From Schmidtea nova (Eukaryota), in contig CM097883.1 of NCBI GenBank assembly GCA_044892505.1, positions 275,094,001 to 275,158,000 on the forward strand: 64,000 bases of DNA. The letters run 5' to 3'. The notes beneath the pieces were generated by a model. That model had not been told where the DNA came from and made no database searches. It saw only the letters and a program-made list of their open reading frames with translations. Numbering within the stretch: the stretch's first letter is position 1; every line of letters begins with the position of its first letter. Below are positions 2,494-30,200 of the stretch, one piece after another. Both the position numbers and the translations under genes were made by a program.

Positions 2494-3507
2494 TTAAAAA
2501 ATAAAATTTCAAATTTAATTTTTATTATTTAAATTTAAGGATTTAAAAAAATATATTTAATTTATAATTTTTTTTGTGTAGGTTTATCGAGTTCTTTAAC
2601 TGAAAAATAAATATTTGTACAAGACCCAAAAAAAGTAATTCTTGTGATAAACTATGAATAAAATTTAATATATTAGTTATGTTTTTTGTTTTGTTGATAT
2701 TTCTAATTGTGTGATTCTCATGAAATTTAACTTTGATTTTTCTTGTAAATTGTTTACAATACATAAATAAACATGTTGTTTACATTTTAATCAGTAGTCG
2801 TGTTTTTAAAATCTATTTATAATTTGTTTACTTATGTTGCAAAAATTCATGAATTTTTTTGGCAAATGAAATAGAAATCATTCAAGACCCTTGTACAATG
2901 CATTTTTACAATAGAACAATAATTTTATTGTTTAAATAGAGTACATTATTATAAACAAATTTATTTAATTATTTATTTGTAAATAAAATTTAACAATTTT
3001 TTCTTACTGAAAATCAAAAGTTTTTTTAATATATTTTCGTTTTCATATGATTTAAGATAAATTAACATAACTATTAGATCAACTATTATATAAAAATGGT
3101 AAATTTTTCAAATAAATGAAAGCACCGTTTTTTAAACCTTTTGAGGGCTGAATTATTTTTTCTTTTGAAAAATTAATGAATAGGGCATATTTACTGGCTA
3201 TTTATAAACAAATAAAACATACAAAACTAATATAATGAAACCGAATTATTCACGTTATCCTGCAGGACGCGGTTATCTCACGAGACCACCTGACCGCAAA
3301 AGGCAAAACAAAAAGGATATGTTTTTTATAAACTATTTATATTCAAAAAATAACATTTCAAAATTCGATAGACATTTTATTATTTTGTATGGAAAGCTGC
3401 AAAACAGTTTTTGTCGTGCTTGATGCACAATCCAACATTGCATGTTGCACATTTCCACATTGTACGACTAAAATTATCCTCAGTACTACAGTGAGCACAC
3501 CTTAGTG

Positions 3508-4078
3508 CAGTGGTTCTCAAACTTTTTGAAGTCGGGGAACACTAAACTCTGATACATTTTTAGGCGGAACATCTACAATACAACATAAACTTTAAAACAG
3601 AGGGCGCGGGTAGTTAACCTTTTTAAAATCAAAAGAGCAATAAAAAATGGAATAATGTTCGCAAAAACACTCCATTATTATAGAACAAAAAAGAAAACGG
3701 AATCGTGCTGCAGCGTGTAATTGGCAACCCCCTGTTTCAAAGTGCTACTTTTAGAAAAAATATGTATATAAATAAAATATGTACCAATATTGGTTGATGC
3801 AAATATATTTATTGAAAACACAATTAAAATTACAATACTTTGAAAAAAATATCTAACTTAATGCGATACATGAGCTTGACGATCTTTACAGATCTCAGCG
3901 ATATTGGGATGAATAAATGATAAAGCCATTTATACAAAGCCGAATGGTACGTATAAATTTTATATTGAATTGATTTTTATGTGCGAACAATTTTTAATTG
4001 ATTTGATTTTTTCGCGGAACATTTGAAAGTGATCGCCGGAACACCAGTGTTCCGCGGAACACGCTTTGAGAACCACTG
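3508..4078. mobile_element. Non-autonomous hAT (Charlie/Buster-like) element nested in the piggyBac
   Basis: TIRs CAGTGGTTCTCAAA / TTTGAGAACCACTG; perfect 8-bp TSD CCTTAGTG (3500-3507, 4079-4086); internal remnant CKDRQAHVSH* on the minus strand. Confidence 0.92.
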
Positions 4079-5092
4079 CCTTAGTGACGTAGTTCTTTCT
4101 GGCATATGACAAGCTTTCGATGCACGGACTTCTGGCTGAATAATATTTTTGTATTTCCTGGGCGGTTTATCCATTTACGTCCGCCCTTTTTTAGCGGGTA
4201 TAATTGCTCCTACGAGACCAGATATCAGCGATAATCGAAATTCTTTTAATGTCATTTTCTTTTCGTTGTTTATTTGTTGGTATAAAATATGAGCATTTAC
4301 TACGCTAGCAGCAAGAAAATAGAAAAAAAGTTCGGTGCCACCATTTGTGGGACTTGCCATCTATTTCATATAGACCTTTTAGCATATCAAATTTGTCAAC
4401 ATAACCCATATGTTTGTTAGAGTCAACACTTTTACGATCCATCCATTCCAGTGCTAAATGTCCATCTGTAGAAATTCGATAATCAAAATCTCCGCGATTC
4501 AAATTTCTAGCGTTTTCTAAATCAGGAAATTGTTTCCTTCCCTTTCTTACTGTTCCGCAACTATATATTCCATTTGACAATAATGCTCTTTGTAATTCAA
4601 CGGAACTGAAGTAATTGTCAAAAACACTGATATTTACCTATCAAAGGTTTAGTGAGATCCTGTACAATTGTTCTCGGCAGACTCGCCTACTTTCCCCGAA
4701 TAAATTTGAAATTGGCTCATATTCCCATTAGAATCTGCTTGGGCCCATACTTTGTACCCACGTTTCACAGGCTTATCAGACATGTATTGTCGCAGGCTAC
4801 TGCGCCCTTTGAAACAAATCATCGATTCATCTACTGATTGACACTCATGAGGCTCGAGTGCTGGGAGAAATATCTCTTCAAGTTTAGTAAGAAAGGGTCG
4901 CACTTTGTATAGTTTGTCGAAATCTTCTTCATTTTTTTGGTTGACAAGAATTATCATTCAAATGAATATATAAAAGTAGCCAATCAAAACTAGCTCTTGA
5001 AATGACATCACTAATGAAATTATCTCAAAGCTCATCACTAGAGGGCCAGTAGTCCTTGTAAGCAGGCATTTGCTTTATTCCCATCAACAAAT

Positions 5093-7704: not shown

Positions 7705-8054
7705 TGTTGGGCCCGCCAAATCACCTAAAAACACAATAAAACGAACAAAATCATGAAACAATAAAGAAATGATAAAAATAAAAATAGCAAGAAAAACAAA
7801 TTAAAAATAACAATAAAACGACAAATAATAATTGAGAAATTTTCAGTAAAAGGAAATTTTGAAAATAAACCGGTAAACAACCGCAAAAGGGGGCCTGAAA
7901 TAAGAAAAGTAGAATTAAATAAAATAATAGTACAAATAATTAATTAATTACTTAGAAAATCAGGACCACCCAGCGAGAAACCGGAAAAGGAAACAAAATA
8001 ATGTTTAGATTAGATTAAAATAATAAAAATACTTTGAAGGACGGCCTGATCCTG

Positions 8055-8089
8055 ATTGGTCAATCCAACCAGACGGATCAGTATAAATA
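8055..8089 (+). promoter_or_regulatory. LTR core promoter: inverted CCAAT box plus TATA box
   Basis: ATTGG at 8055 and TATAAATA at 8082; the same pair with the same 27-bp spacing occurs in the diverged solo LTR (54458, 54485). Confidence 0.65.
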
Positions 8090-9092
8090 CCGATCCAAAA
8101 ATCACAACAACAGACTTGAGACGTTTTTACTTTTCACTTACAATCAAGACTAAACTTTGATTTAAGTAACATTTCATTTAACGAAGCGAGAATTTTTTGA
8201 AAAAACAGAATTCAAGTACGGAACGTAATTTTTATTGTTATTTTTTAATGTACCCATGATTTTTATTTTAATTAAAAGTTTATATGTAAACGTCATTTCA
8301 TTTTTTCATTGATTATTTTTAATGCATATAGCTATACTTCCTATGCTGCTCACGCGGCGAGGGAGTCCGAGTCGTCGTCGTGGGGCCTCAGGGTCTCACA
8401 TGGCGGTTCAACCTTTTTATTATTTAATTTAGATGTGAAGTTTTATCTAGAAAATTTGATTGAATTTTTAGTCTAATACAGACCATTTGCAAATTATTTA
8501 ATTTTGGGTTGCACAACGGACGAAGGTCGAGGGCCAAATATGTAGATTGCGGAGGGCGGATGGATAAGGAGGGACACCCCATGGTAGGGCATGCTCAGTC
8601 TTTAAATTTTTGGTAAATTGAATCGAAAGGGAACCTCCCGCATGGAAAACAGTGAGCAACAACTAAAATAAATTTGAATAATTTCGTTGGAATGAGAAAA
8701 TCCAACGTAGTCCAAAGTCCGATTTCATTCGGAATCAGCATTTCGCCTACGAAATTTTAACATCGATAAATTCCGATCGCGATGGAATGCGTCGGAAAAT
8801 CCAAATTAAATTAGTTACTAAAAATAGGCCGATCGTCGTATATGACGCGGTTTCCCAAGTTATTCTCCGATCGCTGTATATAGCGCGGAAATCTTGATTA
8901 AATTCGATAATTCCTGAATGCTGTATATAGCACAGGACTAATTATGAACTCTTTATTCCGACCGTGGTAGATCACGGCGGAGAGAAATAAAATTAATCTT
9001 ATTTTTTAACTGTTGTGATTATATGCAACATAATTAAATTATCAACGAATTTCCCCCTTAACTCATATTTATATCCAATAAATGTAATATAG

Positions 9093-9572
9093 ATGTCGAC
9101 AGCTGAACTTATACATCAATTGACGCAACTACGGAATATGGAGCAAGGGAATCTGCGAAATGGAAATATCTCGCAGCTCAAGGATCTACCAGCATCGATA
9201 TTGCGGACCCTCAACTGCCAAATGTATAAGTGGCGACAGGGGTTTGGCCGAAAATGCCCGTTCTCGATATGGACAGGAGGGCACGACCAAATACTCTATC
9301 GAGGAGGACCGAACTGGCCGATTTCTCAAAGGCCGTACTCAAACAAATTTGGCCGACTTGTCGTACTGATCAAGGACACCGATGGACGGACAAGCCGTGT
9401 AATTTATTGGGGGCATATCCCTCGTCGGGAACTATGCCAACTAGGCCTACACGAATTCCTGCCACGAAAACCGTTCGGCAAGGAGTGCCAGAAAGGACAA
9501 TCCTCATTCTCTTGGGCTCGTCTCCGTCAGAAACCGATTAACAGCGAATTGCATAGCCTGTTTCGGAGATAA
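9093..9572 (+). CDS. LTR-encoded ORF1, 159 aa, unknown function
   Basis: ATG directly after TAG acceptor-like site; identical copy in 3' LTR; positional counterpart in solo LTR at 55618. Confidence 0.55.
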   Translation: MSTAELIHQLTQLRNMEQGNLRNGNISQLKDLPASILRTLNCQMYKWRQGFGRKCPFSIWTGGHDQILYRGGPNWPISQRPYSNKFGRLVVLIKDTDGRTSRVIYWGHIPRRELCQLGLHEFLPRKPFGKECQKGQSSFSWARLRQKPINSELHSLFRR

Positions 9573-9755
9573 GAACTGATTGTCAAATCTTTCAAATTGT
9601 GATTAAATATTAATATTCAGTAGTGTTTTTGTTTTGTTGTTTTGAGTTTTGGTATTGTGTTTTTATAATTCATATTCGTAACCAAATAACCCTATAATCA
9701 GTTTCATTTTTCACATCATTTAATCATAGAGTAAATATCCTAAATAAATTATAGA

Positions 9756-10352
9756 ATGAACCCAGATTTGATGCAGAAAGAATTGGAAAAGATGTGGCGG
9801 ATTCGGAGAGCCCAGGACAAGGAATTGGGTCTCCTCAAGGCACAATTGATCAAAGCAGAGGCACAGATTGCATATTTGCGCAAAAGCTGGTTTGCTCCGG
9901 CCCGTATGAAGGAGCAAATCAGTAAAACCGAGCGCGCCCAACAGACTGCAGCCGATTACCAAATGGAATGGGAGGCTACAAAGATAGAACTCCGAAAATG
10001 CCTCCATTCCGTAACTGCCTCATACATCGAGAAGGAACTCAGAGAGCAAATCCGTCCGATTACGTACCAAGCTTGGACGGCAGAAAAGAAGACAGTAAAC
10101 TCCATTGGAACGGATGTCACCGATTTAATTGAAAGTCGGAATGAGACAGCTCCTCCAGCCAATTCAACCACTTCATCGGCGACTGCGCACCAGAAACGCA
10201 AGCGCATTGGGCAGAAACGGCGGAGACAGAGAAAATTATTTGCCCAGCAATTACAAATCCAAGTCGATGGTCTACATCAGATGACTGAGGAAGCATTATT
10301 GACGGAGATTTTTCCTCCGGCGGGAGTTTTTACCGAACTCATTAAAAATTAA
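9756..10352 (+). CDS. LTR-encoded ORF2, 198 aa, coiled coil plus basic NLS-like C-terminal region
   Basis: Protein-level homologue in solo LTR (56445-57008): WFAPARMK/WFNPERVK, IEKELREQIRPITYQAW/ITEQLRPVIRASTFNRW, KRKRIGQKRRRQR/RRNRLGAKKRRER. Confidence 0.8.
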   Translation: MNPDLMQKELEKMWRIRRAQDKELGLLKAQLIKAEAQIAYLRKSWFAPARMKEQISKTERAQQTAADYQMEWEATKIELRKCLHSVTASYIEKELREQIRPITYQAWTAEKKTVNSIGTDVTDLIESRNETAPPANSTTSSATAHQKRKRIGQKRRRQRKLFAQQLQIQVDGLHQMTEEALLTEIFPPAGVFTELIKN

Positions 10353-10826
10353 ATAAATTGTTGCATTGGCTTAAGAATCTCATCGTTCATTTAAATTGAT
10401 TTAATTAACTTTACCAATGATTAAATAAAGATAGAACAAAAGTATAAATTCAGTTTACAAAATATCGAATAGAGATAATTAAATAATTAAGCGAGCATTC
10501 GTTGAAATACTTCTCGCAGACTGAGCAATGATAAAAATAAATTTTCTGAAAGATTAACGCGGGATACATAAGTAGATGATTAAAGCATAAGTCCTTCTAA
10601 CGGCAGCAATGAACCCGTAAACATAAATGGGGAGTAGTACTAGCGATAGTGCTCACCTGCCCATCATTGTTTAACCACCCTGCGCATCACCAACTTGATT
10701 ATATAGGGAAATAATCAAGGGCGCTGGAGTGTAGAATTGCAATTTTATGCATGATCATGGATGAGGGATCCCTAGTCATTGTTAGAACATTTTTCATCTA
10801 ACCCCTCCATGAACCCAGCATAAATT

Positions 10827-11148: not shown

Positions 11149-11610
11149 ATGGAGGAAAAACTGAAAGAAATCGAAGAATTCCTCAACACAGAAAGCGAAA
11201 CATTAGAAACGATTGGCAAGAAAATAAACCGATTTAGAGAAATTGAATTTCAAGAACCCACAACACAGACTGAGGAAACAGATGAATTAATAAAGATAAC
11301 AGAAAGAATAAGTAAAATCGACATAGAGACCCGCTACAAATGGTACAGAACACGATTAGAAAATGCAGAATTAAATATTAAGTGCAGGCAAATAGAACAA
11401 CAGTTAACCTCAACATACAATCGATGGAGGGCGCAAGGGGTAGAAGCAGCGAAAAAATACCGACAGTGCTATATATGTGGGGATAGCGAGATACAAATTA
11501 TGTTTTTACCTTGCGGACATTTTCGTTTTTGTAAGATATGTGCCAGCAAGTGCGACCTATGTCCTATGTGCAACCTGATGATAGACGATAAAATTATTGT
11601 ATATTTATAA
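11149..11610 (+). CDS. Coiled coil plus C-terminal IAP-type RING finger protein (153 aa)
   Basis: CYICGDSEIQIMFLPCGHFRFCKICASKCDLCPMC followed by IIVYL*, the spacing and terminus of XIAP/cIAP RINGs; no BIR domain visible. Confidence 0.85.
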   Translation: MEEKLKEIEEFLNTESETLETIGKKINRFREIEFQEPTTQTEETDELIKITERISKIDIETRYKWYRTRLENAELNIKCRQIEQQLTSTYNRWRAQGVEAAKKYRQCYICGDSEIQIMFLPCGHFRFCKICASKCDLCPMCNLMIDDKIIVYL

Positions 11611-12085
11611 TAAATAAAATTTGAATGGAATTTTATTGGTTTATTAATGATGAAATCATGGGTACAATTGTCATATATAAATAATTTTTGAGCTACTGCA
11701 AAGTAGTCCGATAGGAATCCATTGGGAGGTACCGATTGATCAACTTATTCAGGGTGTATAGAAAGGGGCCCATCGCAAATGTTGGAAAGTTTTTGTGATG
11801 TGATTGATCACCACATCCTGCATTAATGGACCAACGCGATCTTTTTGTATATTTTGGTTGGGGAGAGAGATAGGGAAATCTTGATGGAGTAAAGCGCGCA
11901 TAAGAAAAATAAATAAAAAGTTGAAGCAGACTGATCAGGAATAGTTATGATAGAATAAAGAGATAAATGACAAATTTTGAAAGAATAAAAGGTGCATAGT
12001 CAGCTCGCATAGAAGTAGTTATAACTCAGCTGAGAAATTTTAATCGCTAGCGAAGTAGGGAAGTGTGATTAACCGGTTAAGTAAA

Positions 12086-12467
12086 GTTAGGAGATTTGTC
12101 CCTTGAAACAAAGGGTTAGGAGATTTGTCCCTTGAAACAAAGGGTTAGGAGATTTGTCCCTTGAAACAAAGGGTTAGGAGATTTGTCCCTTGAAACAAAG
12201 GGTTAGGAGATTTGTCCCTTGAAACAAAGGGTTATGAGATTTGTCCCTTGAAACAAAGGGTTAGGAGATTTGTCCCTTGAAACAAAGGGTTAGGAGATTT
12301 GTCCCTTGAAACAAAGGGTTATGAGATTTGTCCCTTGAAACAAAGGGTTAGGAGATTTGTCCCTTGAAACAAAGGGTTATGAGATTTGTCCCTTGAAACA
12401 AAGGGTTATGAGATTTGTCCCTTGAAACAAAGGGTTATTAGCGGTTTGTCCCTTGAAAAAAAGGGTT
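12086..12467 (+). repeat. Tandem array, 29-bp unit, about 13 copies
   Basis: Unit GTTAGGAGATTTGTCCCTTGAAACAAAGG with a GTTATGAG variant; no spacers. Confidence 0.95.
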
Positions 12468-12509
12468 GAGGCCAATGAGCCTTATTGAATGACCTAGCTA
12501 GGCGTTATG

Positions 12510-12795
12510 GAGAGATTAAACTGAGGCCAATAGAGCCATTTGAGAGATTAAATTGAGGCCAATAGAGCCATTTGAGAGATTAAATTGAGGCCAATAGAGC
12601 CATTTGAGAGATTAAATTGAGGCCAATAGAGCCATTTGAGAGATTAAATTGAGGCCAATAGAGCCATTTGAGAGATTAAAATTGAGGCCAATAGAGCCAT
12701 TTGAGAGATTAAATTGAGGCCAATAGAGCCAGGTGAGATAGTAAAATGAGGCCAATAGAGCCATGTGAGATATAAAATTGAGGCCAGAAGAGCCA
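12510..12795 (+). repeat. Tandem array, 32-bp unit, about 9 copies, each with a CCAAT box except the last
   Basis: Unit TGAGGCCAATAGAGCCATTTGAGAGATTAAAT; CCAAT at 12527, 12559, 12591, 12623, 12655, 12688, 12720, 12752. Confidence 0.95.
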
Positions 12796-13408
12796 TAGTG
12801 AATTATAGAGATATCCGGATAAATAGTAACAGGGGGAATATAGACCCATAGTATAATCGTCGACGAGATTTAGAGTAGTGCGCACCAGTAGTTAAGAGAA
12901 TGCGAGTAAAGCTGATTATGCAACCTTAAGTAAAGCATGCAAGGAGAATAGTAAAAATTTGGGCTGACCGGAGCAACCGGCAGAATGAGTAGAACGATTG
13001 TTAGCAGGGAATAATGAATAGAAATGATAAAATAATGATAAACGAGTCAGGAAGACTCAGGGAATTAGAGCGCTCGAGCGACCAATAAATTGGGAAACTG
13101 TGGGAAAAGTAATCGATTTGATAAAACATAGATAATTATTACGACGTAAATAGATAATTGTGACCAGTCTATAGATAATTTAAATAGACTAAAAATAAAG
13201 GGGAATCTGGGAATTGGGAAATAATGAAAACCCAGTAATAAGTAATCCCGAAAGAAAGGGAATAAAAGCGCGACGATAACAATAATGTATCGTTGAGGAC
13301 CTTTGTATTTTAGATATACAAATCAATCAAATCAATCAATCAAGCAAGAAGAATCAGAAAAACGATAAGAGATAGAACAGGAAAATTGAGTATACAAAAG
13401 TAATCCCC

Positions 13409-16400
13409 TTGAGAAAAGGAGCAAAGAGTGTCGAAGTAAAGCCAACGGAAAAGAAAGTCGATAGCAACAGTAATAAAAAAGACAAAACTAGTACTACAAC
13501 AAAATCAACAAAAAAGCAGAAAGCCGGCAAAGATAACCCACAAGGGAGTAAATCGAGGAAAATAATAAGAGATAAATCGATTACCGAGAACGATAAATTG
13601 TCAATAATAAGCAACAGCTCAAGTAACAAAGAAAACCAAGCCGAACCCAAGGAGAACCAAGCAAGTGAAACAGAGAGCGACGAAACTAACAACGATAATA
13701 TCGAAGAAGTAGAAAACGAGGTAGAACCAGAGATAGAAATCAACGCGAGTGATAACGAAAGTATAATATCAGATAACGAAGGAATAAGAGAAACAGAAAG
13801 CGATTCAAGCTCGAGTGGAACAGAAGACGAACATAACAACGAATTAGAAACAAGAGGAAACGAAAGTAAAATAACTCAAGACAGCGGAATTGAAATGAGC
13901 GAACCAAGAGAAGAAATAAAGGATAAATTTTCGGGAGAACCGTTTAACGGAGATGCGAGTAAATTAGAAATTTTTCTCAAGGAATTTGGCATATTCGTGG
14001 AAGTATGCAAATGGAAAGCTGAGACAACAGCAAGTAGAATACAGTTATATTTGAAAGATAGCGCATTGGACCTATATTTGGAAGCAAAAAACGGTACCAA
14101 TCCACCTGCAGACTGGCCAGCGATAAAGGACTTTTTCCAACAAACATTTGGAATAAATAGAGTGCTGAGCGAAGCATTCATAGAATTTTCAATGAGAAAA
14201 CAAAAGATGAATGAATCTAACGCGGTATACGCGAGCGAATTGAAAAAATTAGCAAAATCGGTATTCAAGGATGGGAGTCCAATAAACGAGGAATTAATGG
14301 CAGCTATCTTCATAGGAGGATTAAGAAGACCTGACATAAGAGCGCAAGTAGGATGCCAAGGATGCAAAACCCTAGACCAAGCATTAGAAACAGCTAACAG
14401 ATTCGAACTGCATATGATAGGAAGTGAGGGCAGAATTTATTTAGCCATGGATACAGCGCAAACCGAACCAGAGGTAAATCTCAACAATCACATTCCAAAT
14501 TCGCAACAATTAAACCGACCACCCCCTCAACGAAGGAATGAAGGAAATAAAGTGCAGAACTTTGAAAACCAAAACAATTACAACCCTCAAAGACAAACAA
14601 AACAATGTAAAACATGCGGGAAGTTGGGACACTGGCAGCAAGAATGCTATCAAAATTTGAATTGCGGAAAATGTGGAGTTAAAGGACACTCGGAAAGCAG
14701 ATGTTCTACGATAATCTGTTTTAATTGCGGACGACCTGGTCACTATTCAAGGAATTGCGGACAAAAAGGTAATCAACGAGGAAATTGGCAGAGTAATGGG
14801 AACCGACCAAATTACGGAAATCAAGCAAATACCGTAAACCGACCAGATTATGGGAACCAACAAGTCAATAATAACAATAATCAGAACAAAACCACCCCCA
14901 AAGAAATACATTTAATGCAAGAAGTCCAAAGATTGACGGAACTTATAAACAATACGACGAGAGGAAATCCGCAAACCAATCAACAGCAAATTAGCATGAT
15001 GAGAAAAATAGAAAGCGAAAACGAACGATTGAATCAAGAAAGTCAAGCACGACACGCTCAGGAATGGGCAAGAATACAAAGAGAGGATGAACAAAAACAG
15101 CAAGAAAGAGAGCGACAACCTCTAAGAATTAACATGCTAAGAGCAACAAACCAAACAGACACTCGCGAGAAAGAAACCACACTGGAAATGAATTCGATAG
15201 ACCCAAATCCAGCCGACAACGAAAGTCGAAAAGAGACAGTACAAAAAGACGAAGAAGTAGAAAAAGAAATAAAAAAGGAAGGGGAAACTGAGATAAACCA
15301 GGAAGAGAGAAGAAAAATTTGGAAAAAAGGAATGATGGTAATCATGCCCAACGACCATATGTTTCGATTCCAATATAACGCAAAAGAAAAGGTGGAAATA
15401 CTATTCAATAAAGTAAACCAGATGATTCCAGGAGTGACAAAACTGCCCAGAGAAGCGTTCTTACAAATAGGAGATGCACCATCAGTAAAATTGAAATTAA
15501 CGGATATATGGGAAAACATGGGAGTAGTAGAAACAAAAAGAAATGTGATGAGAATTAAAGAAATAGAACCAGAAGAAATTCCACCACCAATACGTCACGA
15601 AACCCGAATCCGGCGAATATTTGAAGGAAAAATGATAAGAAGGCGTTTAAAAGAGATAGACGAGTTGGGAAAGAAAATGGAAAAAGTCGAAGTAATAGAG
15701 GACAAGAGTGAACCAACACCAGAAATTGACAAAAACGAACCAGAACCAACGGAGAATATACAAGGAGAAACGAACCAAATAGCACATATTAATATGCTAA
15801 GAAATACCACCAGAGAGTTTTCCGATGAAGAAGAAGATAGTGATATCAGTAGCCTAGCAGGAGACATATTAAACGAATCCGAAGATGAAAATAAAGAGAG
15901 AGAAGTAATAAAGACCTCAGAACCTACACAGATAAAAGTAGATGAAATCCAGAAATTACTAGATAACTCACTAGAAGTAATATATAACGAAGAGTTCATG
16001 GACAAGAAACAATATCGGAAATTCATGAAAGCATTATTACAAATGAACTACAAAGAATGGTTACAAGACCGGGAAGTAGACATGTTGAATCGATACGTAG
16101 GGAAATTAATAGAGGAACCACTCCTCAATTACACCATCTCAATAATAATAAATACATCTACACCAAGAATCTGGATCAAAACTCCATTTACAGACGATAT
16201 CTACAGATGGGTAGAGGATAGACTAGGGAGCTCATATAAAAACAAATTCATCTATTCGCAGAATAGACTCGTAAAGAAAAGAACTCACTTAGTAGAAACA
16301 GGTATATGGCCAGGAGAAATAACCCTGTTATCAATATGTGATGAAAAAGAAGAAGAGAACCTACAAGAAGTTGCAAGGGAAGCAAACGCGTGCTTCGAAA

Positions 16401-18247
16401 GGAGAATAAAACCACGGTTAGAATACGAGAAAGAACGAGTTTTGCGAAAGAATCTAAATTCCCTGATAGAACAAATCATACCACAAGTCAAAAAACATAG
16501 AAAAGAGTTAATGAGAAACGAATACGAGAAATTGAAACGATGTATTGAGTGCATACGTGACACAAGTCACACGAGATGGTCACAGATCTCACACGACAAA
16601 TTAATCGCAAAAATGGGAAAAACAATGTTTAGACAAGGGAAAATAACAGATCTAAAAATTTCGGTAGAATTACCTAATGAGGACACCAAAGAAATTGAGG
16701 TGGTAGCGGACTGCACCATTAAGGAATTAATAAATGTCATCAACGAGACACTAGTGCAAAGAGAACCAGAAGACGAATGGGAAGACGACATAATCATACA
16801 ATACAACGAACATGTATTATGGGATCACGATGAGAGACGATTATATAAAATCGGTATATGGGATAATCACCAAACAATCCACGTTAGCAGAATGGACAAT
16901 ACACCCAGAGAAACTGCTAAAGATGAGAAAAGAGAACGGGAACGACGGAAAGAAGTTGTGCGTAAATTACAACAAATAGTAGAAATTTATCGAAATTGGC
17001 GAATTTGGCCAGAGTGGGAAAATGTATTAGAAGAACTCAATCTCAACAGACGAATACGAACACCCGTAGAAAAACAATGGAACGAGAAAGGAAAATGTTG
17101 GGAACCAAAAGAAGGGGAATATGAAGAAGAATATAAAAGAGGAATTGAAGATGACTGTGAACCAGAGATAGGAAGAGTTTGCATGGTAACAAGGAAAGCT
17201 ACGCCAATAGACCTAGATGGACCAGAAACCGCGGCTATGTGGTTGGAAAGGGAAAAGCAAAAAACGGAAGAATTCGTCGAAATATTAAAAACTAATGCGC
17301 ACGGTAAGAGAAAAGTAATAAAGGGTCTCGCAGATTTTTTCGTGGTAAATGGGGAGGATATAACATGCTTACGTAAAGTAGCAAAAGCAATCGCGGAATA
17401 TAAAAGAGTTAACGAGTGGTGTCCGGAACAACTAGACCACGTAATTAGGAAATGGAGAAATCAAGAATTCTCGCAAGAAATTCCACAGAAAGTACATTTA
17501 AGAATAATATACCCAAACAAGGATAAGGAAGAGTTGTGGGTAGGAATAGCAGAAAAAATTCGAGATATTAAAAAGAAATTGAGATACGAACCACCATTCC
17601 ATTTACAACATCAAGGACGATCATTAGATAACAGTTTAGAGATTGGAATAACGCCAGCACAATTAGACCTCATGAATACCTTGACAGTAGAAGCAATAGC
17701 GGGTCAACCATTGAAACGTAAAGAAGAAAACCATAAACCACACGGAAGTATAAGTACGCCGAGCCCGATGAAATCAGCACTAACACCAGGGACAAGTTCG
17801 AGACGATCTGAGACAACACCCAGAGGAAATAGAGAAAGGACTCCACCACAACCATATGACGTGGACGAAATATTTACAGACAGCGACGATATGATAGAAG
17901 AATTAACCGAATTAACAAGGGAAAAGGACGATAACATTTTCGAAAGAATACAAGAACTACCTACAACAATACAAGTAACCAACACCGGAGAAACAGAAGT
18001 CGAAGAAGAGATAATAATAGAAGAGGTAAACGATTTGACGGAAGATGAAACGAGAGGAGCAAATGTCGAAAATGTACAATTAACACAAGAAATGGAAAGA
18101 TGGTTAGAAGAAAGAGCTAACGAACCAAGAGATGTCACCGAAGAAACAGGACGAGCAACAAGGTTTGTGGAAACAGGTACAGGAATGGATAAACGACCTA
18201 GAGGTAGACCTAAGACAGACCCAGCAAACTGTAGTTGTAAGAAATAA
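13409..18247 (+). CDS. gag: Extended Gag: capsid, three CCHC zinc knuckles and a long C-terminal extension with ubiquitin-like modules
   Basis: Capsid-like PFNGD...FLKEF, YLKDSALDLY, FIGGL; CKTCGKLGHWQQEC, CGKCGVKGHSESRC, CFNCGRPGHYSRNC; frame open from 13376 but first ATG at 13895, so the true start is uncertain. Confidence 0.92.
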   Translation: MRKGAKSVEVKPTEKKVDSNSNKKDKTSTTTKSTKKQKAGKDNPQGSKSRKIIRDKSITENDKLSIISNSSSNKENQAEPKENQASETESDETNNDNIEEVENEVEPEIEINASDNESIISDNEGIRETESDSSSSGTEDEHNNELETRGNESKITQDSGIEMSEPREEIKDKFSGEPFNGDASKLEIFLKEFGIFVEVCKWKAETTASRIQLYLKDSALDLYLEAKNGTNPPADWPAIKDFFQQTFGINRVLSEAFIEFSMRKQKMNESNAVYASELKKLAKSVFKDGSPINEELMAAIFIGGLRRPDIRAQVGCQGCKTLDQALETANRFELHMIGSEGRIYLAMDTAQTEPEVNLNNHIPNSQQLNRPPPQRRNEGNKVQNFENQNNYNPQRQTKQCKTCGKLGHWQQECYQNLNCGKCGVKGHSESRCSTIICFNCGRPGHYSRNCGQKGNQRGNWQSNGNRPNYGNQANTVNRPDYGNQQVNNNNNQNKTTPKEIHLMQEVQRLTELINNTTRGNPQTNQQQISMMRKIESENERLNQESQARHAQEWARIQREDEQKQQERERQPLRINMLRATNQTDTREKETTLEMNSIDPNPADNESRKETVQKDEEVEKEIKKEGETEINQEERRKIWKKGMMVIMPNDHMFRFQYNAKEKVEILFNKVNQMIPGVTKLPREAFLQIGDAPSVKLKLTDIWENMGVVETKRNVMRIKEIEPEEIPPPIRHETRIRRIFEGKMIRRRLKEIDELGKKMEKVEVIEDKSEPTPEIDKNEPEPTENIQGETNQIAHINMLRNTTREFSDEEEDSDISSLAGDILNESEDENKEREVIKTSEPTQIKVDEIQKLLDNSLEVIYNEEFMDKKQYRKFMKALLQMNYKEWLQDREVDMLNRYVGKLIEEPLLNYTISIIINTSTPRIWIKTPFTDDIYRWVEDRLGSSYKNKFIYSQNRLVKKRTHLVETGIWPGEITLLSICDEKEEENLQEVAREANACFERRIKPRLEYEKERVLRKNLNSLIEQIIPQVKKHRKELMRNEYEKLKRCIECIRDTSHTRWSQISHDKLIAKMGKTMFRQGKITDLKISVELPNEDTKEIEVVADCTIKELINVINETLVQREPEDEWEDDIIIQYNEHVLWDHDERRLYKIGIWDNHQTIHVSRMDNTPRETAKDEKRERERRKEVVRKLQQIVEIYRNWRIWPEWENVLEELNLNRRIRTPVEKQWNEKGKCWEPKEGEYEEEYKRGIEDDCEPEIGRVCMVTRKATPIDLDGPETAAMWLEREKQKTEEFVEILKTNAHGKRKVIKGLADFFVVNGEDITCLRKVAKAIAEYKRVNEWCPEQLDHVIRKWRNQEFSQEIPQKVHLRIIYPNKDKEELWVGIAEKIRDIKKKLRYEPPFHLQHQGRSLDNSLEIGITPAQLDLMNTLTVEAIAGQPLKRKEENHKPHGSISTPSPMKSALTPGTSSRRSETTPRGNRERTPPQPYDVDEIFTDSDDMIEELTELTREKDDNIFERIQELPTTIQVTNTGETEVEEEIIIEEVNDLTEDETRGANVENVQLTQEMERWLEERANEPRDVTEETGRATRFVETGTGMDKRPRGRPKTDPANCSCKK

Positions 18248-21200
18248 AGACGAAAAGAGACAAGATCAATGGGAATTATGTTTAAGGAAATTAAATAAAA
18301 TTGCGGAGATGAAAGAAAAAGAGACAACACCAATATGTCAAGGGGAGGAATGGATATCGAAAACAATAATGGAGATATTGGCAATAATTGATCCGGAATT
18401 GAGAAAATACTGGCGGATAACTGAGATAAGCGAAAAGGCGAAGTCACTACACAGCGCAATCGCACCCATTTTACCAGAATTCATAAAAGAAAAGACGAAA
18501 TCAAATCACTTAGACTGGCAAGGAACCACTATGTTAATAAAGAAACTGACAGAAGGAGCGGAAACGGATAATAAATACGTAATAGCCATTGCATACACGA
18601 TCTACAATCTATTAACATTGAGAAGAGGTCGACCAAAACCCACTGCATTAGAGAGACATATAAAGAATACCGCAAAGATTATAGCTAGAGAAATAGAACC
18701 CTACGTCATTAACAAAGGAGGATGGGAAACATTTATAAAAACTAACCAGAAGAAAACCCAAGCCAAGAATATGAAAAAGAAATTCGAAAAAATATTGGAA
18801 GAGTTAGGAAAAGAACAAGCAGGAACAGGAAACGCAAAGTCATCAATGAATCTGAGTGCTATAATAATGATGATGTTGATTTGGATGATTAGCACCGATA
18901 GCGCAACAGCATTCGAAGTGTTTGATTGCGACCAAATGAAGTTAGGAGAAAAGTATTCATTGAGAGGTACGGAGCAATGCAAAGATGCGACTCCAGTAGA
19001 GTTGCAAAAGATTAAAAAGGAACAATGGTACCACGTGTATCAAGAAGCAGAACTCATAAAGACAATGGTGAATGAATGTAAAGTGCAGAAGACGAGATTC
19101 GCGTTCTACTGCGGGAGAGGACATTATTCAGCAATTGTCATGCCAGGAACGGAAAGAGAACCAATCGTGTTACAAGGAGAAGACTGCGAAGCACTGTTTA
19201 AACATGGAGAAGTAACAACAAGAGATAAAATCAAGATAAGAGGAAAGCCAGGAATGATGATGCAACAAACGTACTATGTAGCAGGACGGATTACGGGAGG
19301 AGAAGGATATTGTCAAGGAGAAACCTACCCGATATTCGGAGTACCCGCAACCAACCTAGTAGTAATGGATACGTATATAGTCGAATTAAAAAGCTATGAA
19401 GCATTCTTCGAACCAACAACGGGAGAAATGAAAACGTTATCCATGTGTAAAATCGACAGGAGCATGTGTCAAACGGGAATGTCAACATTAGTGTACAAAC
19501 CAAAGGTAAACGAATGTCAGTTACAACTGCTACAAGGAGCAAAGTTCGACGAAATCCAAGGAAAAACGTTCCAGGAAGAAGACGATGACGACAAAGATAG
19601 AGCAAAGCATCTCAAGGAAGCTTTAGAGAATAAAAGACAACTGAAACCAGATCATAGAGAAAAACGAATAGAGATGAGAGCCACACCAACAGTATTGATA
19701 ACCACAAATCAGGATGTGGGAATGAGGTTCATAAAAGGAAAAGCAACCCTCAAGTGTAGTACAACGGTATACGAAACAAATTACCCAGGAATATATGTGT
19801 CAAAACAAGAAGTGCCAAACGCGAAACCCAAAATCGACACAATGGATATCAAACTACATTTGTATGTAAATAATAAAATGGATTTCCTATTCCATAGAGG
19901 ACAAGCCTCATTACAAAAAGTGTACTACGATCTAATAAATAATGATTGTATACTGAATCGAGAAATATTAAAGACAAAGTTGGCCGTAGCGATTACGAAT
20001 CCAGATAGCGCGATGCCATTATTACCACTGAGAGAAGGACATTTCGGAAGAGTGGTTGGAGAAGCAATGTATGTATACATTTGCGAAAAGACACACGCGT
20101 CACTAGCAGCAACAACACAGTTGAAACCTGGAACCTGTACAAATGAGTTAGAAATCGATTACAAAGGAAAAGTACGATACGTTCAACCGGTGACGAGAAT
20201 CATCAATCCACCAGGGTTTGAACCAAATCCATTCAACTGTAGTAATGCGTATGGACCACTTTATCAGAAACCAGATGGTAAATGGGTTATGTTCCCAGGA
20301 AGATCCGAAGTGATAGCACCAAGAGAATTCGAGCTAATGCAGTTGTCAAAGGATAGGCAATTCAGCGACGTGGATGTCTCAAACAATGGAATATATAGCC
20401 CAAAGGATTTAGAAGCAGCAAGGCAGAATATATTATTCCCAGCGAGAAGAGAAGCATTACTGTCAAATATCGTAACGATAACAGGAGGAACGGATTATCG
20501 AGAAGGACCGAATTATGAACTATTGTTGTCACCAGCACATTTCAAAAAAGCCACAGAAAACATGATGAAAGCAATGTGGGGAAGATTTCTGATATTCGGA
20601 CAAATGATGGCTGGAATACTGGGGGTTATATTAATCATCCAAATCGTCAGAGTAATAATAACACAAATGTTAGCATGTTTTGACATCTACAAGAGAGAAA
20701 AGAAAGTGAATTGGAAAATGGTAGTAGGATTTTTACCATTCCTTGCGAAAACGATGGTGTTACACGGTCACTCAAAAGATATCCACCGAATAAAAAGACT
20801 CCTAAAGATATTAGCAAAAATGAAGGGAACAGATGAAGAAGTAGGACGAAAATTTAAAAAGATAATGAATGACGAACAAGCAAGACAACAGCTCAAGAGA
20901 GAAAGAAAAGGTTTATGGGAGAGGATGAAAGGATATAAAACCCAAAATGATTCGAGTGACGACGATGACGACGATGACGACTATAAGGGAGGACAAGTGT
21001 ATAAGAACCAAGCACCACAATACATCGAAAAGAATCCAGCCGACGCATGGAAATGTTACGCACCTCCACCAACAATGTACCAAGAACCACTACAAGGAGG
21101 AAAAAATAGCACGATGCAAATGATGCCAATGACAAATGTATACCCCATGATACCAGAAGATTATAAAATGAGAAGATGTAGAAGCGTAGATCCACAAGGA

Positions 21201-24200
21201 GATACACATACGATCGCCGTAATGTCATCAAACACAGGTCCGGTATTAACCACGACAATAGAAATTAACGGAAGAGAAATCGAAGCAATGATCGACACTG
21301 GAGCAAACATTTCCGCCATCGACATCAAATGGATACCACAAGAGCAAAGACGGGAAATAGAAAGGACAAACGTCCATGTAATTGCATGTAGCAAAGAAGT
21401 TGTAGAAGTAGCAGGAAGATGGTGGGTAAAAATACGCCACTTAAACACGGAAATCGATACATACGTAGCTGTTATAACAGCATTAAGCGTACCTTGCATT
21501 ATCGGAACAGATTTGATGCCAGCATTATTTAAAGAGATTGTAATCGATCTCGGAACAATGAGACTAAAGGATCGCACAGGACAAATATGCGCAATAGAAG
21601 CCAAAGTGACAAGTTCAAAGCAAATGATAATACCCGCAAGAAAGGAGAAAATATGTTACGTAAAAATAGATCCGACAATCCAAGGGGATATGATTTTCGA
21701 ACCAAGTAAGAGATTCGAGAAAAGAAAAGCGTTGCCAATGGCAAGAGGACTAGTCAACATAAATGACGATGGAGAAATCCCAATAAACGTAGTAAACTTC
21801 GATGAAGAGGACAAAATAATATACGAAAACGAAAGATTAGGTAAATTAACCCCAATGATGGATATCGAACTGCCAATAGAAGGAGCAGAGAAAGATAAAG
21901 AACCAACCTGGAATATAGATAGTGAATTATTAAATGAGGATCAAAGGAAGCAGTTAGAAAAACTCCTGATAGAGTATAAGGATATATTTGCAGCATCCGA
22001 TTTGGATCTAGGAACATGTGATGTCACACTACATACAATACCATTAACAGATGAAACACCAATTGCATTAAGGCCGTACAAATTAGCGGAAGCACAGAAA
22101 GCAGTAGCAGAAGCAGAAGTGAAAAAAATGTTGGATGCAGAAGTAATCGAACCAAGTTGTTCACCCTGGCAATTTCCAGTGGTAATGGTGAAGAAGAAAG
22201 ACGGAACACAGAGATTCTGTATAGATTACCGAAGATTGAATACAGTGACAAAACGAGATACTTACCCATTACCAGACATCAACGAGATGCTACTAACATT
22301 ACAAGGAGCAGCATATTTTACGTCGTTAGATCTGAAAAGCGGATATTGGCAAATAAAAATGAAGGAAGAAGATAAAGAGAAAACTGCCTTTACCATCGGT
22401 AGAGACCTATATCAATTTCGAAAGATGCCATTTGGATTAACGAACGCACCAGCATCATTTCAGAGATGCATGAATTTCGTCACCCATGGAATAAAGCAGT
22501 GCATGGTCTACATCGACGATTTATTAATTTATTCTAGTACATTTGAACAACACATACAAGATATTCGAGATGTATTCGTTAGACTTAGACAATGGAAGTT
22601 AAAACTCAAGCCATCAAAATGCGATTGGGCAAAAGAAAAGGTTACATTTTTAGGACATATAGTGTCAGCAAAAGGAAAAGAACCGGATCCTAGAAATATC
22701 GACAAGGTAAAAGAATGTCCAGTGCCAAAAACAATAACCCAAATACAAGAATTTCTCGGACTATGTGGATATTATAGAAAGTTTATAAAAGATTACGCCG
22801 GAATAGCAAAACCTATACAGGAGCTGGTAAAGAAAGATGTATCATTCATATGGGGAGATGAACAACAAATAGCCTTTGAAACGTTGAGAGATAAATTGAT
22901 AACCGCACCCATATTGGTACACCCAGACTTTAAGAAGCCATTCCTACTTGCAACAGATGCAAGCGGATATGCAGCAGGAGCAGTATTAGGACAATACGAC
23001 GACGAAGGAAAAGAACGGGTAATCGGATATTATAGCCGAACATTCAAAAAGCATGAGAAAAATTACTCAGTGACAGAACGGGAAGCATTAGCGATTATAT
23101 TAGCGATTAAACATTTTAAATACCTATTATGGGGACACATCATCTGCATAACAACAGATCACCAACCGCTTGTATGGTTAGGACAGCACAAGGAAACATC
23201 CAGTAGATTAATGCGATGGGCAATGCAGTTACAGGAGTACTCACCAGACATTAAATTTAAATCAGGACGAGCGAATGCGAATGCAGATTGTATGTCAAGA
23301 CTGACATTTCCAGAACTAACCGATCCTGATGTACAACGAATTTGTGTATTAATAGCGGAGGATTTAGATTTTAGTGAGTTAAAGAAAGATCAACAAGAAG
23401 ACAAAGAATTAGGACAAATCATAGAGTTCCTAACATCTCGAAATATGGAAGTATTCAAGGATAATAAGGAATTAAAGGAACATATAGGAAAATATCAACA
23501 TCGCTACATAATAAATAAAGGATGGTTATTAATACAAGACGGGGAAAAGAGATTGATGTGTTTACCGGAAAACAGAAGGAAAGAGATAATGATCCAGTAC
23601 CATGATGGGAAACTAGGAGGTCATATGTCCGAGAAAAAGACAATAAATCGTATGAGACAAAAATATTATTGGCGAACAATGGAAGAAGATATAAAGGAAT
23701 GGATTAAAAATTGTCTAACTTGCGCAACCAGAAAGGATAGTGGGAAGAAATGGAAGAACCCACTACAACCAATGCCGATACCAGCAGAGCCAATGACAAC
23801 TATAGCAATGGACGTAATAGGACCATTACCAGAAAGTTTAAACGGAAATATTTATATATTGGTAATAACGGATTATTTGACGAAATTCCCGGAAGCATTT
23901 GCCATGCAAGACCAAAAAGCAAAAACCGTAGCAAAAATTCTAGTGGAAGAAATATGTTGCAGATACGGAACTCCAAAACAAATACTCACAGACCAAGGAA
24001 CTAATTTTATGAGTGAATTATTGAACGAGGTGACAAACTACTTCAGAATAGCAAAATTGAGAACTTCACCATATCACCCGCAAACGAATGGACAAACGGA
24101 GCGATTCAACGGCACATTGATTAGAATGTTATCAAACTACGTCAGCAGACACCAAACTGACTGGGATGAATACATAAAATTATGTTTAATGGCATACCGA

Positions 24201-27200
24201 ATGTCGATACATGCAGCAACAAAACTAAGCCCATTTCAACTTATGTATGGAAGAGAATGCAACATGCCCATAGATTTAGAGTATCAGCCACCATTATCGC
24301 AATATATGGAAGATGACGACTACGTAACCAAATTCAAAGAAAGAATGCAGGAGATATGGAAAACGGCAGAACTCAACATTAAATTCTATCAGGAAAGTTA
24401 TAAGGATTTACACGACCAGAAGAAAAATGTTAAAGCAAACGACCTAAAACCAGGAGATTGGGTGATAATAGAAACTCCCGAAATAATACCAGGAACTGTT
24501 AAGAAACTCCAAAGACCTGGAAGAGGACCTTATGAAATTATATACAAAAAGGACAACAATGTCAAAGTTAAGCTAATAAATAGACCGTTAATACGACCCA
24601 TATATGTAAACACCTGCAGATGTAAGAAAGTGCCTAAAACGATAACTACAACACCAGAAAATCGAATAATAACCAGATCACAAACAGCCAGGATAAATAT
24701 GCTCAGAGCTAATGCAACTGAAGACGACAAAGCAGAAATAAGGCAAAAAGAAATCAGAAATAAAGAGATCATATTGAAGGCGAGAGAAATAATGGGAAGA
24801 TGGCATGTTAAAGACGAAGTAGGCATATCAAGGGACATTAGACATATAATTAGCCGTTACGCACAAGGATTGCCAACCGAACCAATTATTTCGGATTTAT
24901 TGGAAAAAATCCCGGAAATACTCTTATTGAAAGATGTAGGAGGACAACCGGCCTTACATAATGCGATTCAGTGTAAAAACATTGAAAGAGCAAAAGAATT
25001 CTTGAAAATCGCAAAAGAAACAAACCAAAACCTAGACGTTGGGAATCGTGAACAAGAAACTCCATTAATGACAGCCGCAATCCACCAAGCAGATAAAGAA
25101 ATGATAGATCTATTGATAAAAGCTCATTTCAGTTGGACAGAACGAGATAGAGAGGACAAAACAGTGCTAAATCACGTAATATGGAGTTCTCACCAACCAA
25201 TGCTGGAATACATAATAGCTAACTCCACTTGGGAGATAGACGAACTAGTTAAAGGAGACATTATCAAAGAGGCAATCAAAATTGGTAAATGCAACACGAT
25301 CCGTAAGTTAATCAAATGGAAACGACCAGAAGATGATACATGGGTCTTAGACATAAACGAAGTATACAGCGAAGGACAAAACGCACTGTTAAGATACCTT
25401 TTGAAATTTACTTGTGATCAGAAGACATTACTAACCTTATTAGACAGAGGAAACATAAACATCACAAAGAATGAAGAAGAATACAAATTCGATAAAGAGA
25501 AGGAAGCCTTATTCAATAAGATTAGGAAATGGTGTGCGAAACCACTTGATAAACTAATAACATACAAAGACATAAACAATTTTAACGAGAAATACCAGAC
25601 GATAGTAAGCGAATATGAGGAATTAGTAAAAATCTTAAACCATCCCGAAAAATGCAAACAGGTTTTAGAGAAAAAAGAAAGAGAAAGTAACAAGAAACTC
25701 ACACCACTCTTCAAAGCAGAAGCACCATACCAAGCTAGACTAGATGCGATACAAGAAAAAGCAAAAGAATTGTTACCGGAATTCGAGAATAGTAAACATG
25801 CACTGGAAATACTCGGCGCATTAGTTGAAAAAGTACACGCATACGCAAAAGGAACATACAATGGTAACGACATAGTAATAATAAAAAAGGAGATGCCAGT
25901 AACATTCCTATTACCAAAAGACGGAATAATGCCCATACATAGAGCTCTACGAAATGGCAAAGATAGGAAAGTAATGGAAATTGCAAGAGTAATGCTAAAT
26001 TGCGGAAGCAATATGAATATGATAGACGAGAAAGGAGATACACTTATGATATTTGCAGCAAGGGCCAAAACGAAAACAAAGGTATTAGAAGAACTATACA
26101 AAGCAGGTGCAGGACTTACAGGAAAGACAGATAAAGATAATTCGATATTGGATGTAGCATTATTAACACACAATTGGGAAATGGTCAATTTCATTAAAAC
26201 CGTCCCAAATCAGGAAGAAATAGATCACCTAACTGATACGGTCAAGAAACCCAGTGTACTAGCAATGATGAACAACGTCGAACTAACAGAATCAATACTT
26301 ACGTGGATAAATCCTAATACTAACGAACCAGCATTCAGGATTAATAAGTTTACAGAACATAACCAAAACTGGTGTATAAGAAGTGCCTTAATAACGTATA
26401 AATGGCCAGAGATATTGAAGATGTTTATGGAAAGAAAAGATCTAAAAATCACAACCAGCCCGAAAGAGGAAAAATACACAGGCAAATGGAAAGAATTGAT
26501 GAAGACATACATCAACAATTGGATCAAGGCCAAAAAGGAAATCTTGGAACATAAATCCACTAACAAAGTAATACCGGAGCAGGTAGAAACACAAGAATTT
26601 GAGGCAAGTAATCTAACGACATTAGCATATGCAAAATTGATAGAAGAAATCAATGTCGAGGACGACATTTTCGACGAGCCAGGGGGAGATGACAACACAG
26701 ATAGTGACGACGGTAACAACTCAGAAAATTCAAGCGATCACGAACCACCCGATAAAGAGGAAAACGAGAGAAAAGACAAGAAACGAGACAAGGAAGGAAA
26801 GAAAGGTGAGGACGAAAAACAAAGAGATGAAGAGAGAGAACAAGGAACAAACGACCAAGGAGATAAAAATGACACCCAAAGAACAGGTTATAAATCAACC
26901 ATAAAACCATTCTTCAAACCAGAATTACTATTACTAACAATGATTATAACGTTAATTAATCCAAGTCAGGGAATGACATGTGAAGAAAGGGCAATAATAC
27001 AAATAAAAAACGCAAAAGGAATCGAACGAGTATGTTGGTCGAAAAAGGACAAAATCACGGAACAAAATAGCCCGATGGATTGCAGAATCTCAGAACACGA
27101 GCAAGAAATCATAGAGATCAACGACCTAGATCTAGATACCTGGTACAAAATATGCACCGTTAGGAAACAAAAGCATCCAAGATCACACAACACAATCGCA

Positions 27201-30200
27201 TGTGCAAAATACCAAACACCTAAAGCAGCCATGACAATACAACAGTCACCCAAAGGAGATTACATCATCGGAAAATGTGGAAGAACAGAGACACAGGGAA
27301 CAGAAAACAAAAAACCCCAGGCAATAGATAAGCAAACAACACCAACCCTACGAATTACAATAGAGAGGCCCGAAACAAGAATTGCCACAAACGAAACCGA
27401 AAGAGTGTCTTACCAAATGGAAGTATTATGCTTAGCACTCATACTAATAATGATAAAACGATTAGAGGAAGGAATAGAAATTGAAACTATGACAATAACA
27501 GAAGTAGAAGATACACAGAATACTAACATAAAATGTTGGGCGAGGAATAACGAGGAAATCGGCGTAAATGAAATAAGGAAAAGTCGAAAACCAACAACGA
27601 ATAAAGTAATTAAAGTATCCGAAGTAAAAGCAGATAAGACGTACAAACTATGCCTACTAGAAAAAGAGACAAACAAGAAAGGTACCACAAAATGCAAAAC
27701 ATTTCAACCCGGAGAAGTAATAAAGTTCAGAAGGAGAACGAGGAAGAGAAATAAACAAATCAAGCGGAAAATGAACATAACATTAGAAATAAAAGAGATA
27801 GAACCAAATGTGAAAGGAGTATGCTGGAGGAAGTACGAAAAAGAAACAAATAAAAGAACGACACCACAATGTCAAACAAGCACAGGAGCAACGACGATTC
27901 AAATAAAAGGTTTAGAAAGTAAACAAACTTACGAAATATGTCTGATAAAGAAAAATGATCAGATAACGATAAACGATCTAGAATGCGGAATATACACCAC
28001 TTCATCCGGAACAAGAACTAAAACGATAACACGAAAAAATAAAAGAAGACAACGAAACAAAGGGAAACCGAAGTACACCACTACCTTTAAAAACAATAAA
28101 CAACCGATAAGCCAAGAAGTTACGACAAAACCCGAGAAAAAGACATCAGCAACTCTGACATTATGGAAAATAGAGAATAAAACATTGGAGATATGTTGGA
28201 TAATAGTTCAGAAACATATAAGAAGACAATCAAGAGAGTGCAGAAAAACAAATAAAGAAATCAAGATCGAAAAACTACAATTTAATAGCGAGTATGAAGT
28301 ATGTACAATAGAAAAGACGGACGCACTAGGAAACCAACAAGAAAGATGCGAAACCTACTATACACCAGCGAACGCAACATCAAAAGGAATAACAAGGAAA
28401 CTCGAATTCAGGGAACTAAGCCAAACGAATGAACAAATGGACGCAGAAAAAACAATAACCGACCCTCAAGCAAAATGGACACCCGAAGAAGTTATCAAAG
28501 AAGTCAAAAGAAAGCAAGAGGAACGAGAACAATTAATGAGAAAACTAAAGGGACAATACGGAATAATGTTCAACCAAAGCGAACCTATACAAACAGACGA
28601 GAATAAAGAAATTAAAGAACTAATCGGCTTAGGAATATTAACAGCAACCATACCAGTAATAATCGCGTTATCAGCTATATGGATACGCAAGATAAACCCA
28701 AGAAAATCAACAACCCAATGGCTAAATATAGATAATACAAGCCATGGAGTAGAAATACTAGAAGAAAAAGCACGAGAAGAACCAAATAAGAAAGAAGCGA
28801 AAAGCGGAAAACTAGGAATAAACAACAAAGACAAGGAAATAAAAGAGATTAAAGGCGAAGAGAAAAAATATGAAAGGCGAACCAGAAGCCTACCGCAGAG
28901 TTCAAAATGGTTGGGTCTAACAATAATATTGACATTAATCAATAGGGAAGAAGCAACAAACCTACAAGCAGGGATAAAAATAGTAAATGTCCAGGAGGTC
29001 GAGAAAATATGCTGGAATAGAGAGGATGAACCAATTGGGAAAGATAACCCACTAAAATGCATAATCAGAAAATCCGACCAGGATATAGTACGAATAGAAG
29101 GGATGGATAGAGGAATCATGCATCGAATATGCATAATAGGAAAGGAAAAGAAGTCGGGGCTACCTAAGACAGTCGTATGTCAAAAATACGAAACGCCTGG
29201 ACTCGAATGGTATAGAGTAAAACCAACAAAGAAAGAAATCAAAAACACCATAGATCAACCAGCAACTCAGATAAGAAACACAACGGATAAACCAGGAGAA
29301 GGAGAGAAAAGCACCAATAAAACGAGAGAAAGAATATCACCCCAACAGGAGTGCGTATGCATAGCATTAATACTAGCAATGTCCAAACGTATCGATAAAG
29401 GAATAATAATAGAACAAATGGCCATAACAATAAGGAAAACAAGCAGCAACAAACTATGCTGGGGAACATATAACGAACCAAGGAAGGAATACCAAGTTCA
29501 GACAAGCGACGAATCACGAACAAACAAGGAAATCGAAATACAAGAAATACAAATGAATGAAGAAGGAAGTATATGTATATGGGAGAGAGGAATCCAAGAG
29601 GGAATAGAGCATTGCAAGACATTCCAAAAAGGGGAGATACTGAAATTCGATGAAGAAGAATTAACAAAAACAGAAAGAACTCTGACATTAACAGGACTCG
29701 ATCAGACAGTTAAAGGAATATGTTGGACAAAGCATAACCCAGAAGGGGAAGAAGACAACCTAACTCACTGTAGAGAAATAAAGAATAAAGAAAAAGTCGA
29801 ATTAAAGAAAATGGAAGTAAATAGGACATACGCGATATGTACCTTCACCAGAAAAGGTTCAGAAAAACCAGAATGCGGATTATATCAGATCTCAGAGAAA
29901 CTACAACAACAGATCGAACCAGGAAACATGGAAAACCGAACAAAAGAAAATAACGTCAAACAACTACTAAACCGCCATTGGTCTACCCAAGAAGTAATGA
30001 ACAAAGTCAAGAGTCAAATACCGAAAGAGAAGAAGCCAGAGGCTCAAACCCGAAATGAGATAAAAGTAAATCAGAATAAAAACAAAGAAACAAACATGGG
30101 GAAAGCAGTAATAGGATTGATCAGTATGGGAATATTAATAACGTATGGAATACTGACGACAAGCATAATAATATATTGGAGATACAGAAAGAGAAACAAA

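Follow-up and report, generated by a model that had tools for sequence, protein, structure and literature searches.

Predicted ubiquitin-like folds within the accessory region of the polyprotein of a Burro-type Gypsy element from Schmidtea nova, and likely protease sites around them

What follows the Gag zinc knuckles of a planarian retrotransposon, and whether it stays attached to Gag, is the question raised by a 64,000-nucleotide stretch of the Schmidtea nova genome (assembly GCA_044892505.1, contig CM097883.1, positions 275,094,001 to 275,158,000; hereafter the window). The window holds a long terminal repeat (LTR) element of 29.75 kb at 7705-37455, with two main open reading frames: ORF1 (protein P0001, 13376-18247, 1,623 codons) and ORF2 (P0002, 18108-30362, 4,084 codons). 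An earlier note, which missed the Burro-type identity of the element, had read four segments of ORF1 as integral ubiquitin-like domains (UBLs) on a permanent Gag extension. Segments 2-4 are supported here as integral UBLs and segment 1 is left as a possible one. The block that carries them belongs to a Gag-accessory-BCL2-Env-Pol polyprotein, in which it is bracketed by conserved likely protease sites, and the view of a permanent Gag extension is not supported. We see about an even chance that segments 2-4 are integral ubiquitin folds without di-glycine that are cut off Gag by the element's protease and serve as adaptors to the ubiquitin/SUMO and cell-death machinery of the host.

All four segments lie on the forward strand. 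Segment 2 (16118-16354) is a predicted beta-grasp domain: its model has the order strand-strand-helix-strand-strand-strand and superposes on the ubiquitin-like fold, with further support from a profile. The top structural matches were the UBLs of BAG1, Dsk2 and midnolin, tied with SUMO, ISG15 and FERM domains; identity to ubiquitin-family chains was 4-19%, and the tied matches allow no family to be assigned. Profile and language model indicate that segment 3 (16649-16894) is likely ubiquitin-like and segment 4 (17489-17704) likely ubiquitin/SUMO-like. Segment 1 (15329-15568) is a possible ubiquitin-like domain that may also be a chance pattern; its model has a predicted local distance difference test score (pLDDT) below 50, its profile score was equalled by 15 of 300 shuffles, and it was seen solely in the window's own family. 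Helical stretches precede segments 2-4 on the same strand: three helices at pLDDT 60-73 ahead of segment 2 (15938-16111), and stretches at 16355-16630 and 17228-17470 ahead of segments 3 and 4.

Comparable units were found between the knuckles and the BCL2-like domain in all four family groups examined; among more distant Env/BCL2 families there is one UBL segment in L067, L068, L069, L070 and L071 and there are two in L061, L062 and L063; the copy number of the helix-plus-UBL unit differs between families, from one to three or four. The L067/L070 segment matches Rad60-SLD with E of about 0.002, short of the curated cut-off, and the four L061/L062 segments scanned gave no ubiquitin-clan match. 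Helix included, the L067/L070 unit is homologous to both L061/L062 units, and these also align with each other (hhalign probability 89-92 and E of about 1e-6 in both cases; the set held 28 unit-against-unit comparisons, with a best reversed control of E=0.01). The helix-plus-UBL units of these other Burro-type families were located at L061:5252-6271, L062:5352-6371, L067:6284-6817 and L068:6462-6995.

The absence of di-Gly ends was borne out, with no Gly-Gly in residues 466-1623 of the ORF1 protein; segments 2-4 lack the C-terminal Gly-Gly of type I conjugatable modifiers, which supports their reading as integral domains. The UBLs of Rad23/Dsk2-type proteasome shuttles carry the patch Leu8-Ile44-Val70. 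In the sequence alignment, the column of ubiquitin Ile44 holds Tyr in all four segment-2 rows, Gln, Lys, Val and Met in the four segment-3 rows, and Gln in all three segment-4 rows. Read from a low-identity alignment and subject to alignment error, this unconserved column is evidence against a Rad23/Dsk2-type shuttle surface, and the earlier suggestion of a proteasome adaptor found no support. Sequence comparison shows purifying selection on the segments and the helical stretches. The ratios of nonsynonymous to synonymous change (dN/dS; pairwise counts of seven of ten retrieved family copies, not independent of one another, against L051 of an approximately 80% identical subfamily) were 0.19, 0.13, 0.06 and 0.10 for segments 1-4, 0.06 for the capsid and 0.28-0.29 for two linkers. 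Across families, segment 4 has 42 invariant columns over 85 residues.

A search of a set of 5.8 billion returned nothing at lengths 892-5,000, and a single protein, P0003 (32% identical, MATH in frame), matched among 1.84 billion representatives. Through P0003 a sister family was found in the same genome, with frames of about 4,990-5,000 codons; six copies were retrieved from 51 scored matches, and L072 is a member. This family is about 30% identical in ORF1 and keeps segments 2 (33-35%), 3 (36-37%) and 4 (52%). It lacks segment 1 and, in L072, carries MATH between segments 3 and 4; MATH stands among the units in P0003 as well. Because MATH and the BCL2-like domain flank segment 4 in the sister family, segment 4 occupies the place of the published Burro SUMO-like motif. 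Reverse transcriptase (RT) and RNase H are identical at 374 of 420 positions (89%) between the window and this in-frame-MATH family. Compared with L078 of the sister family, the window showed 89% identity in RT/RNase H, about 30% in the accessory block and 27-88% per 100-residue block in Env. Either divergence has been highly uneven or the families have exchanged modules.

Within the genome of the window, segment 3 has 813 candidate places; the 150 scored copies share 93-100% identity. A count by eye put 32 of these copies within open frames of 5,641-5,736 codons. In the window, ORF1 ends at a frame break behind an AT-hook-like KRPRGRPK (18191-18247, forward strand; AT_hook E=0.053 in the sister family). 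Since L051 and L072 both have an uninterrupted frame that joins the end of ORF1 to the BCL2-like region, the break is peculiar to the window copy, and the UBL block is an accessory part of one Gag-BCL2-Env-Pol polyprotein, not of a long Gag. The BCL2-like domain occupies 18318-18782 of the forward strand, and behind it comes the hydrophobic Env signal stretch. This start of P0002 aligned with the Bcl-2-matching regions of other families (hhalign probability 95.6, E=1.1e-8; reversed control E=0.16) and had no direct Pfam Bcl-2 match.

A motif class, [IV][NHSCA][MLVAI][LMVI], occurs at all four Pol junctions, namely immediately on either side of the protease, at the border of RNase H with integrase, and behind the integrase (21213, 21585, 23340 and 24693), which accounts for four of the 12 class matches in P0002. 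ORF1 has matches at residues 511, 539, 585, 805, 921, 1119 and 1268. Those rated likely protease sites, all on the forward strand, are IHLM (511, 14906-14917), ISMM (539, 14990-15001) and INML (585, 15128-15139) past the knuckles, INML (805, 15788-15799) between segments 1 and 2, and VCMV (1268, 17177-17188) between segments 3 and 4. Five of the seven ORF1 matches align exactly with motif matches in L072, in which the motif has a per-position rate of 0.004; the two that do not lie within segments 2 and 3. L051, L072 and P0003 all retain the 805 site, in a linker that has itself diverged, the 1268 site is aligned to ISVL in L072, and P0003 also has a motif word that corresponds to 1268 by its position after MATH. 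In the sister family the same four Pol junctions read IAMM, ICSM, ICMI and IYML, two of which fall in the strict class. A hydrophobic P1-P1' pair marks the type 2 retroviral cleavage site (PMC3185560), and the likely sites share this pair, lie in linkers at domain borders and are conserved, as retropepsin sites would be. Cutting at the motif by the element's own protease is what we infer from these sequences. No motif match lies between residue 1268 and the protease, and segment 4 would therefore remain in one piece with everything as far as the Env signal stretch, including the AT-hook-like motif and BCL2-like domain.

Under the favoured explanation, the element's protease would cut the accessory block away from Gag to give separate cytosolic proteins: one of about 220 aa containing segment 1, a second of about 460 aa containing segments 2 and 3, to which the sister family adds MATH, and a third in which segment 4 and the BCL2-like domain, with the AT-hook-like motif between them, would be held in a membrane by the Env signal stretch. 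The released UBL proteins would engage the host's ubiquitin/SUMO and cell-death machinery as adaptors and, alongside the rest of the cargo (BCL2-like, RING, TRAF/MATH and ankyrin), would keep the particle-producing cell alive. A host-facing adaptor is favoured because neighbours of these kinds belong to ubiquitin-dependent signalling in cell death and immunity, and because Burro1 reportedly shields planarian stem cells from apoptosis by means of a captured IAP-like gene (as cited in PMC13465017). A more ambitious and rather doubtful version holds that a so far overlooked Burro helix-plus-ubiquitin-fold module expanded from one to four copies, that these are released by the protease as a host-manipulating set including a membrane-anchored UBL-BCL2 chimera with the Env signal as tail anchor, and that with the RING and TRAF E3s they form a retrotransposon-encoded LUBAC/IAP-like survival complex.

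Several observations weigh against the favoured explanation. Structure prediction, proposed earlier as the check for a beta-grasp, upheld segment 2 and reached only pLDDT 33 for segments 3 and 4. No window segment had a Pfam or PDB sequence match above threshold, and a profile built from the UBLs of other families alone placed the window segments at shuffle level. Common descent of the window units is weak (units 3 and 4, E=0.0016; unit 2 and L067, E=0.02), and the helical stretches are constrained like the UBLs (dN/dS 0.07-0.15). The motif class was picked after inspection of the data, and an independent test was therefore made with a score trained solely on the four Pol sites; it put 585 at the top and 1268 second among 1,615 windows, whereas 805, 539 and 511 came at ranks 7, 8 and 51, and at those lower thresholds shuffled sequences scored as often. 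The L061 family has no motif at its Pol junctions. Finally, the host-manipulating role proposed for the UBLs is drawn from the domains beside them.

Alternatively, and by analogy, the ubiquitin folds might serve the element's own cycle, in nucleocapsid or RNA binding or as an assembly or budding scaffold with Env, and have no partner in the host ubiquitin system. The block stands immediately behind the nucleocapsid knuckles and ahead of Env within a single polyprotein, none of the families examined lacks such a unit, constraint on segment 3 equals that on the capsid, and loss of Ile44 fits a self-partner; yet the variable copy number, and the insertion of MATH into the block in one family, are easier to understand for a signalling cargo than for a core part of assembly, and to our knowledge Gypsy elements mostly assemble without such domains. 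Even with the precedent of coronavirus nsp3, whose Ubl1 binds the N protein (PMC9938351, PMC8769549), we regard this alternative as somewhat unlikely. It is improbable that, as the earlier note proposed, the UBLs remain part of Gag and use a ubiquitin-like surface to recruit the proteasome, p97 or ESCRT or to act as decoys for them. That proposal draws on the fold of three segments, the missing Gly-Gly and the presence of the proteasome-binding UBLs of BAG1, Dsk2 and midnolin among the tied top structural matches, but three conserved likely protease sites part the block from the nucleocapsid and the Ile44 column is not conserved.

Slightly less probable again is that the units bind no partner themselves and act as structural spacers or stability modules that serve the BCL2-like and MATH cargo. 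Their low identity to ubiquitin-family chains and their scant resemblance to one another would fit, whereas the invariant half of segment 4, dN/dS of 0.06-0.13 and repeated duplication exceed what a spacer needs. That the beta-grasp pattern is chance in all four segments is very improbable. Host ubiquitin shows no pairwise similarity to the segments, and significant Pfam and PDB sequence matches are missing, but for segment 2 chance is contradicted at the level of prediction by its model and structural matches, and the profile and language-model support for segments 3 and 4 and the Rad60-SLD match of L067/L070 also speak against it.

The remainder of the element, on the forward strand, is bounded by a 5' LTR (TG...CA, 7705-10820) and a 3' LTR (34340-37455) of 3,116 nt each; the pair is 100% identical over 3,119 nt, with TAAT flanks inside a (TAA)n run. 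Directly after the 5' LTR is a primer-binding-site-like sequence that may match tRNA-Pro. An accessory ORF at 11149-11610 encodes a coiled coil and a C3HC4 RING (Pfam zf-C3HC4_3, E=3e-11) that resembles the IAP type; it had no Pfam match to a BIR domain, in a scan that covered part of the element's small ORFs. The Gag capsid region and three CCHC knuckles span 13895-14758 (zf-CCHC E=1.1e-7; Retrotrans_gag E=6.7e-6 in the aligned sister family). Pfam placed a Monjiviricetes-type Env fusion protein, protease, RT, RNase H, integrase and ankyrin repeats in one frame at 18915-25223, so that Env lies in frame between Gag and Pol and Pol has the order protease-RT-RNase H-integrase. A TRAF-like accessory ORF with RING, TRAF zinc fingers and MATH (Pfam) follows at 30935-32314.

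Other observations were made along the way. The C-terminal third of ORF2 (26500-30362), past the ankyrin repeats, consists of repeated Cys-containing beta-rich units split by hydrophobic stretches; it gave one weak Fn3 match (E=0.16), differs largely in the sister family and may encode membrane or surface proteins. Ahead of the 3' LTR are two more accessory ORFs, for a coiled-coil protein (32402-33490) and for a small protein that contains a hydrophobic segment (33530-34135), neither with a significant Pfam family. Each LTR holds two ORFs of 159 and 202 codons (9093-10352 and 35728-36987) with no Pfam family, and the leader between the RING ORF and Gag has 29-nt and 32-nt tandem arrays (12057-12800). 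Outside the element are further long ORFs at 42334-44871 (reverse strand) and at 48053-49333, 50035-51064 and 55588-56253 (forward strand). In a multi-copy BEL/Pao-type family of genome G000 (L064, L065 and L066, with more than 100 similar matches), a long ORF begins with an Hsp70 fragment and a near-canonical ubiquitin, to which Gag (DUF1759), protease and RT are fused in frame; a HECT fragment is also present in one of the three scanned members.

By its size, long LTRs, polyprotein order, BCL2-like domain before Env, ankyrin repeats after integrase and MATH/TRAF cargo, the element is a Burro-type Gypsy. Literature searches on Burro1/GYPSM1, on Burro with SUMO-like domains and on tandem UBLs in LTR Gag yielded only the 2019 review of Arkhipova and Yushenova (PMC6431247) as bearing on domain content, and Grohme 2018, Jurka 2007 and Lee 2026 may annotate more; the excerpted text of PMC8532177 shows BURRO1 expression without domain work. 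The Burro section of the review describes planarian elements (Burro1/GYPSM1 and Burro2-4) that share with ours a length of about 30 kb, long LTRs, three CCHC knuckles, MATH/TRAF and RING cargo, a single polyprotein of about 5,000 codons (Gag-accessory-BCL2-Env-protease-RT-RNase H-integrase-ankyrin) and a Ubi2/SUMO-like motif (PF11976), there between MATH and BCL-2. It lists one such motif, whereas three supported units and a fourth possible one are present here; MATH lies in the separate downstream TRAF ORF rather than in frame; the RING ORF has no BIR match, unlike the B-IAP BIR of Burro1; and the protease-site map proposed here has no counterpart in that section.

The closest integral-UBL systems are the type II UBLs of Rad60/NIP45 (SUMO-like), OASL (tandem), HOIL-1L/SHARPIN and BAG1, from which the window units differ in their 4-19% identity, the lost Ile44 column, the helical domain ahead of each unit and their coding by a retroelement. 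Coronavirus nsp3 Ubl1 and Ubl2 are described as likewise integral to a viral polyprotein and released by a viral protease; they belong to a different virus class, Ubl1 has a known partner, and the likeness is one of description, with no homology claimed. About half of the Burro polyprotein has been unannotated, and the domain map with its testable cleavage code turns it into defined proteins that can be expressed and used in pull-downs. The map adds three more folded, putative adaptors and presents a retroelement that builds a repeat array from a ubiquitin-like domain. With one SUMO-like domain in Burro already published, the extra units extend a known observation rather than constitute a new kind of system.

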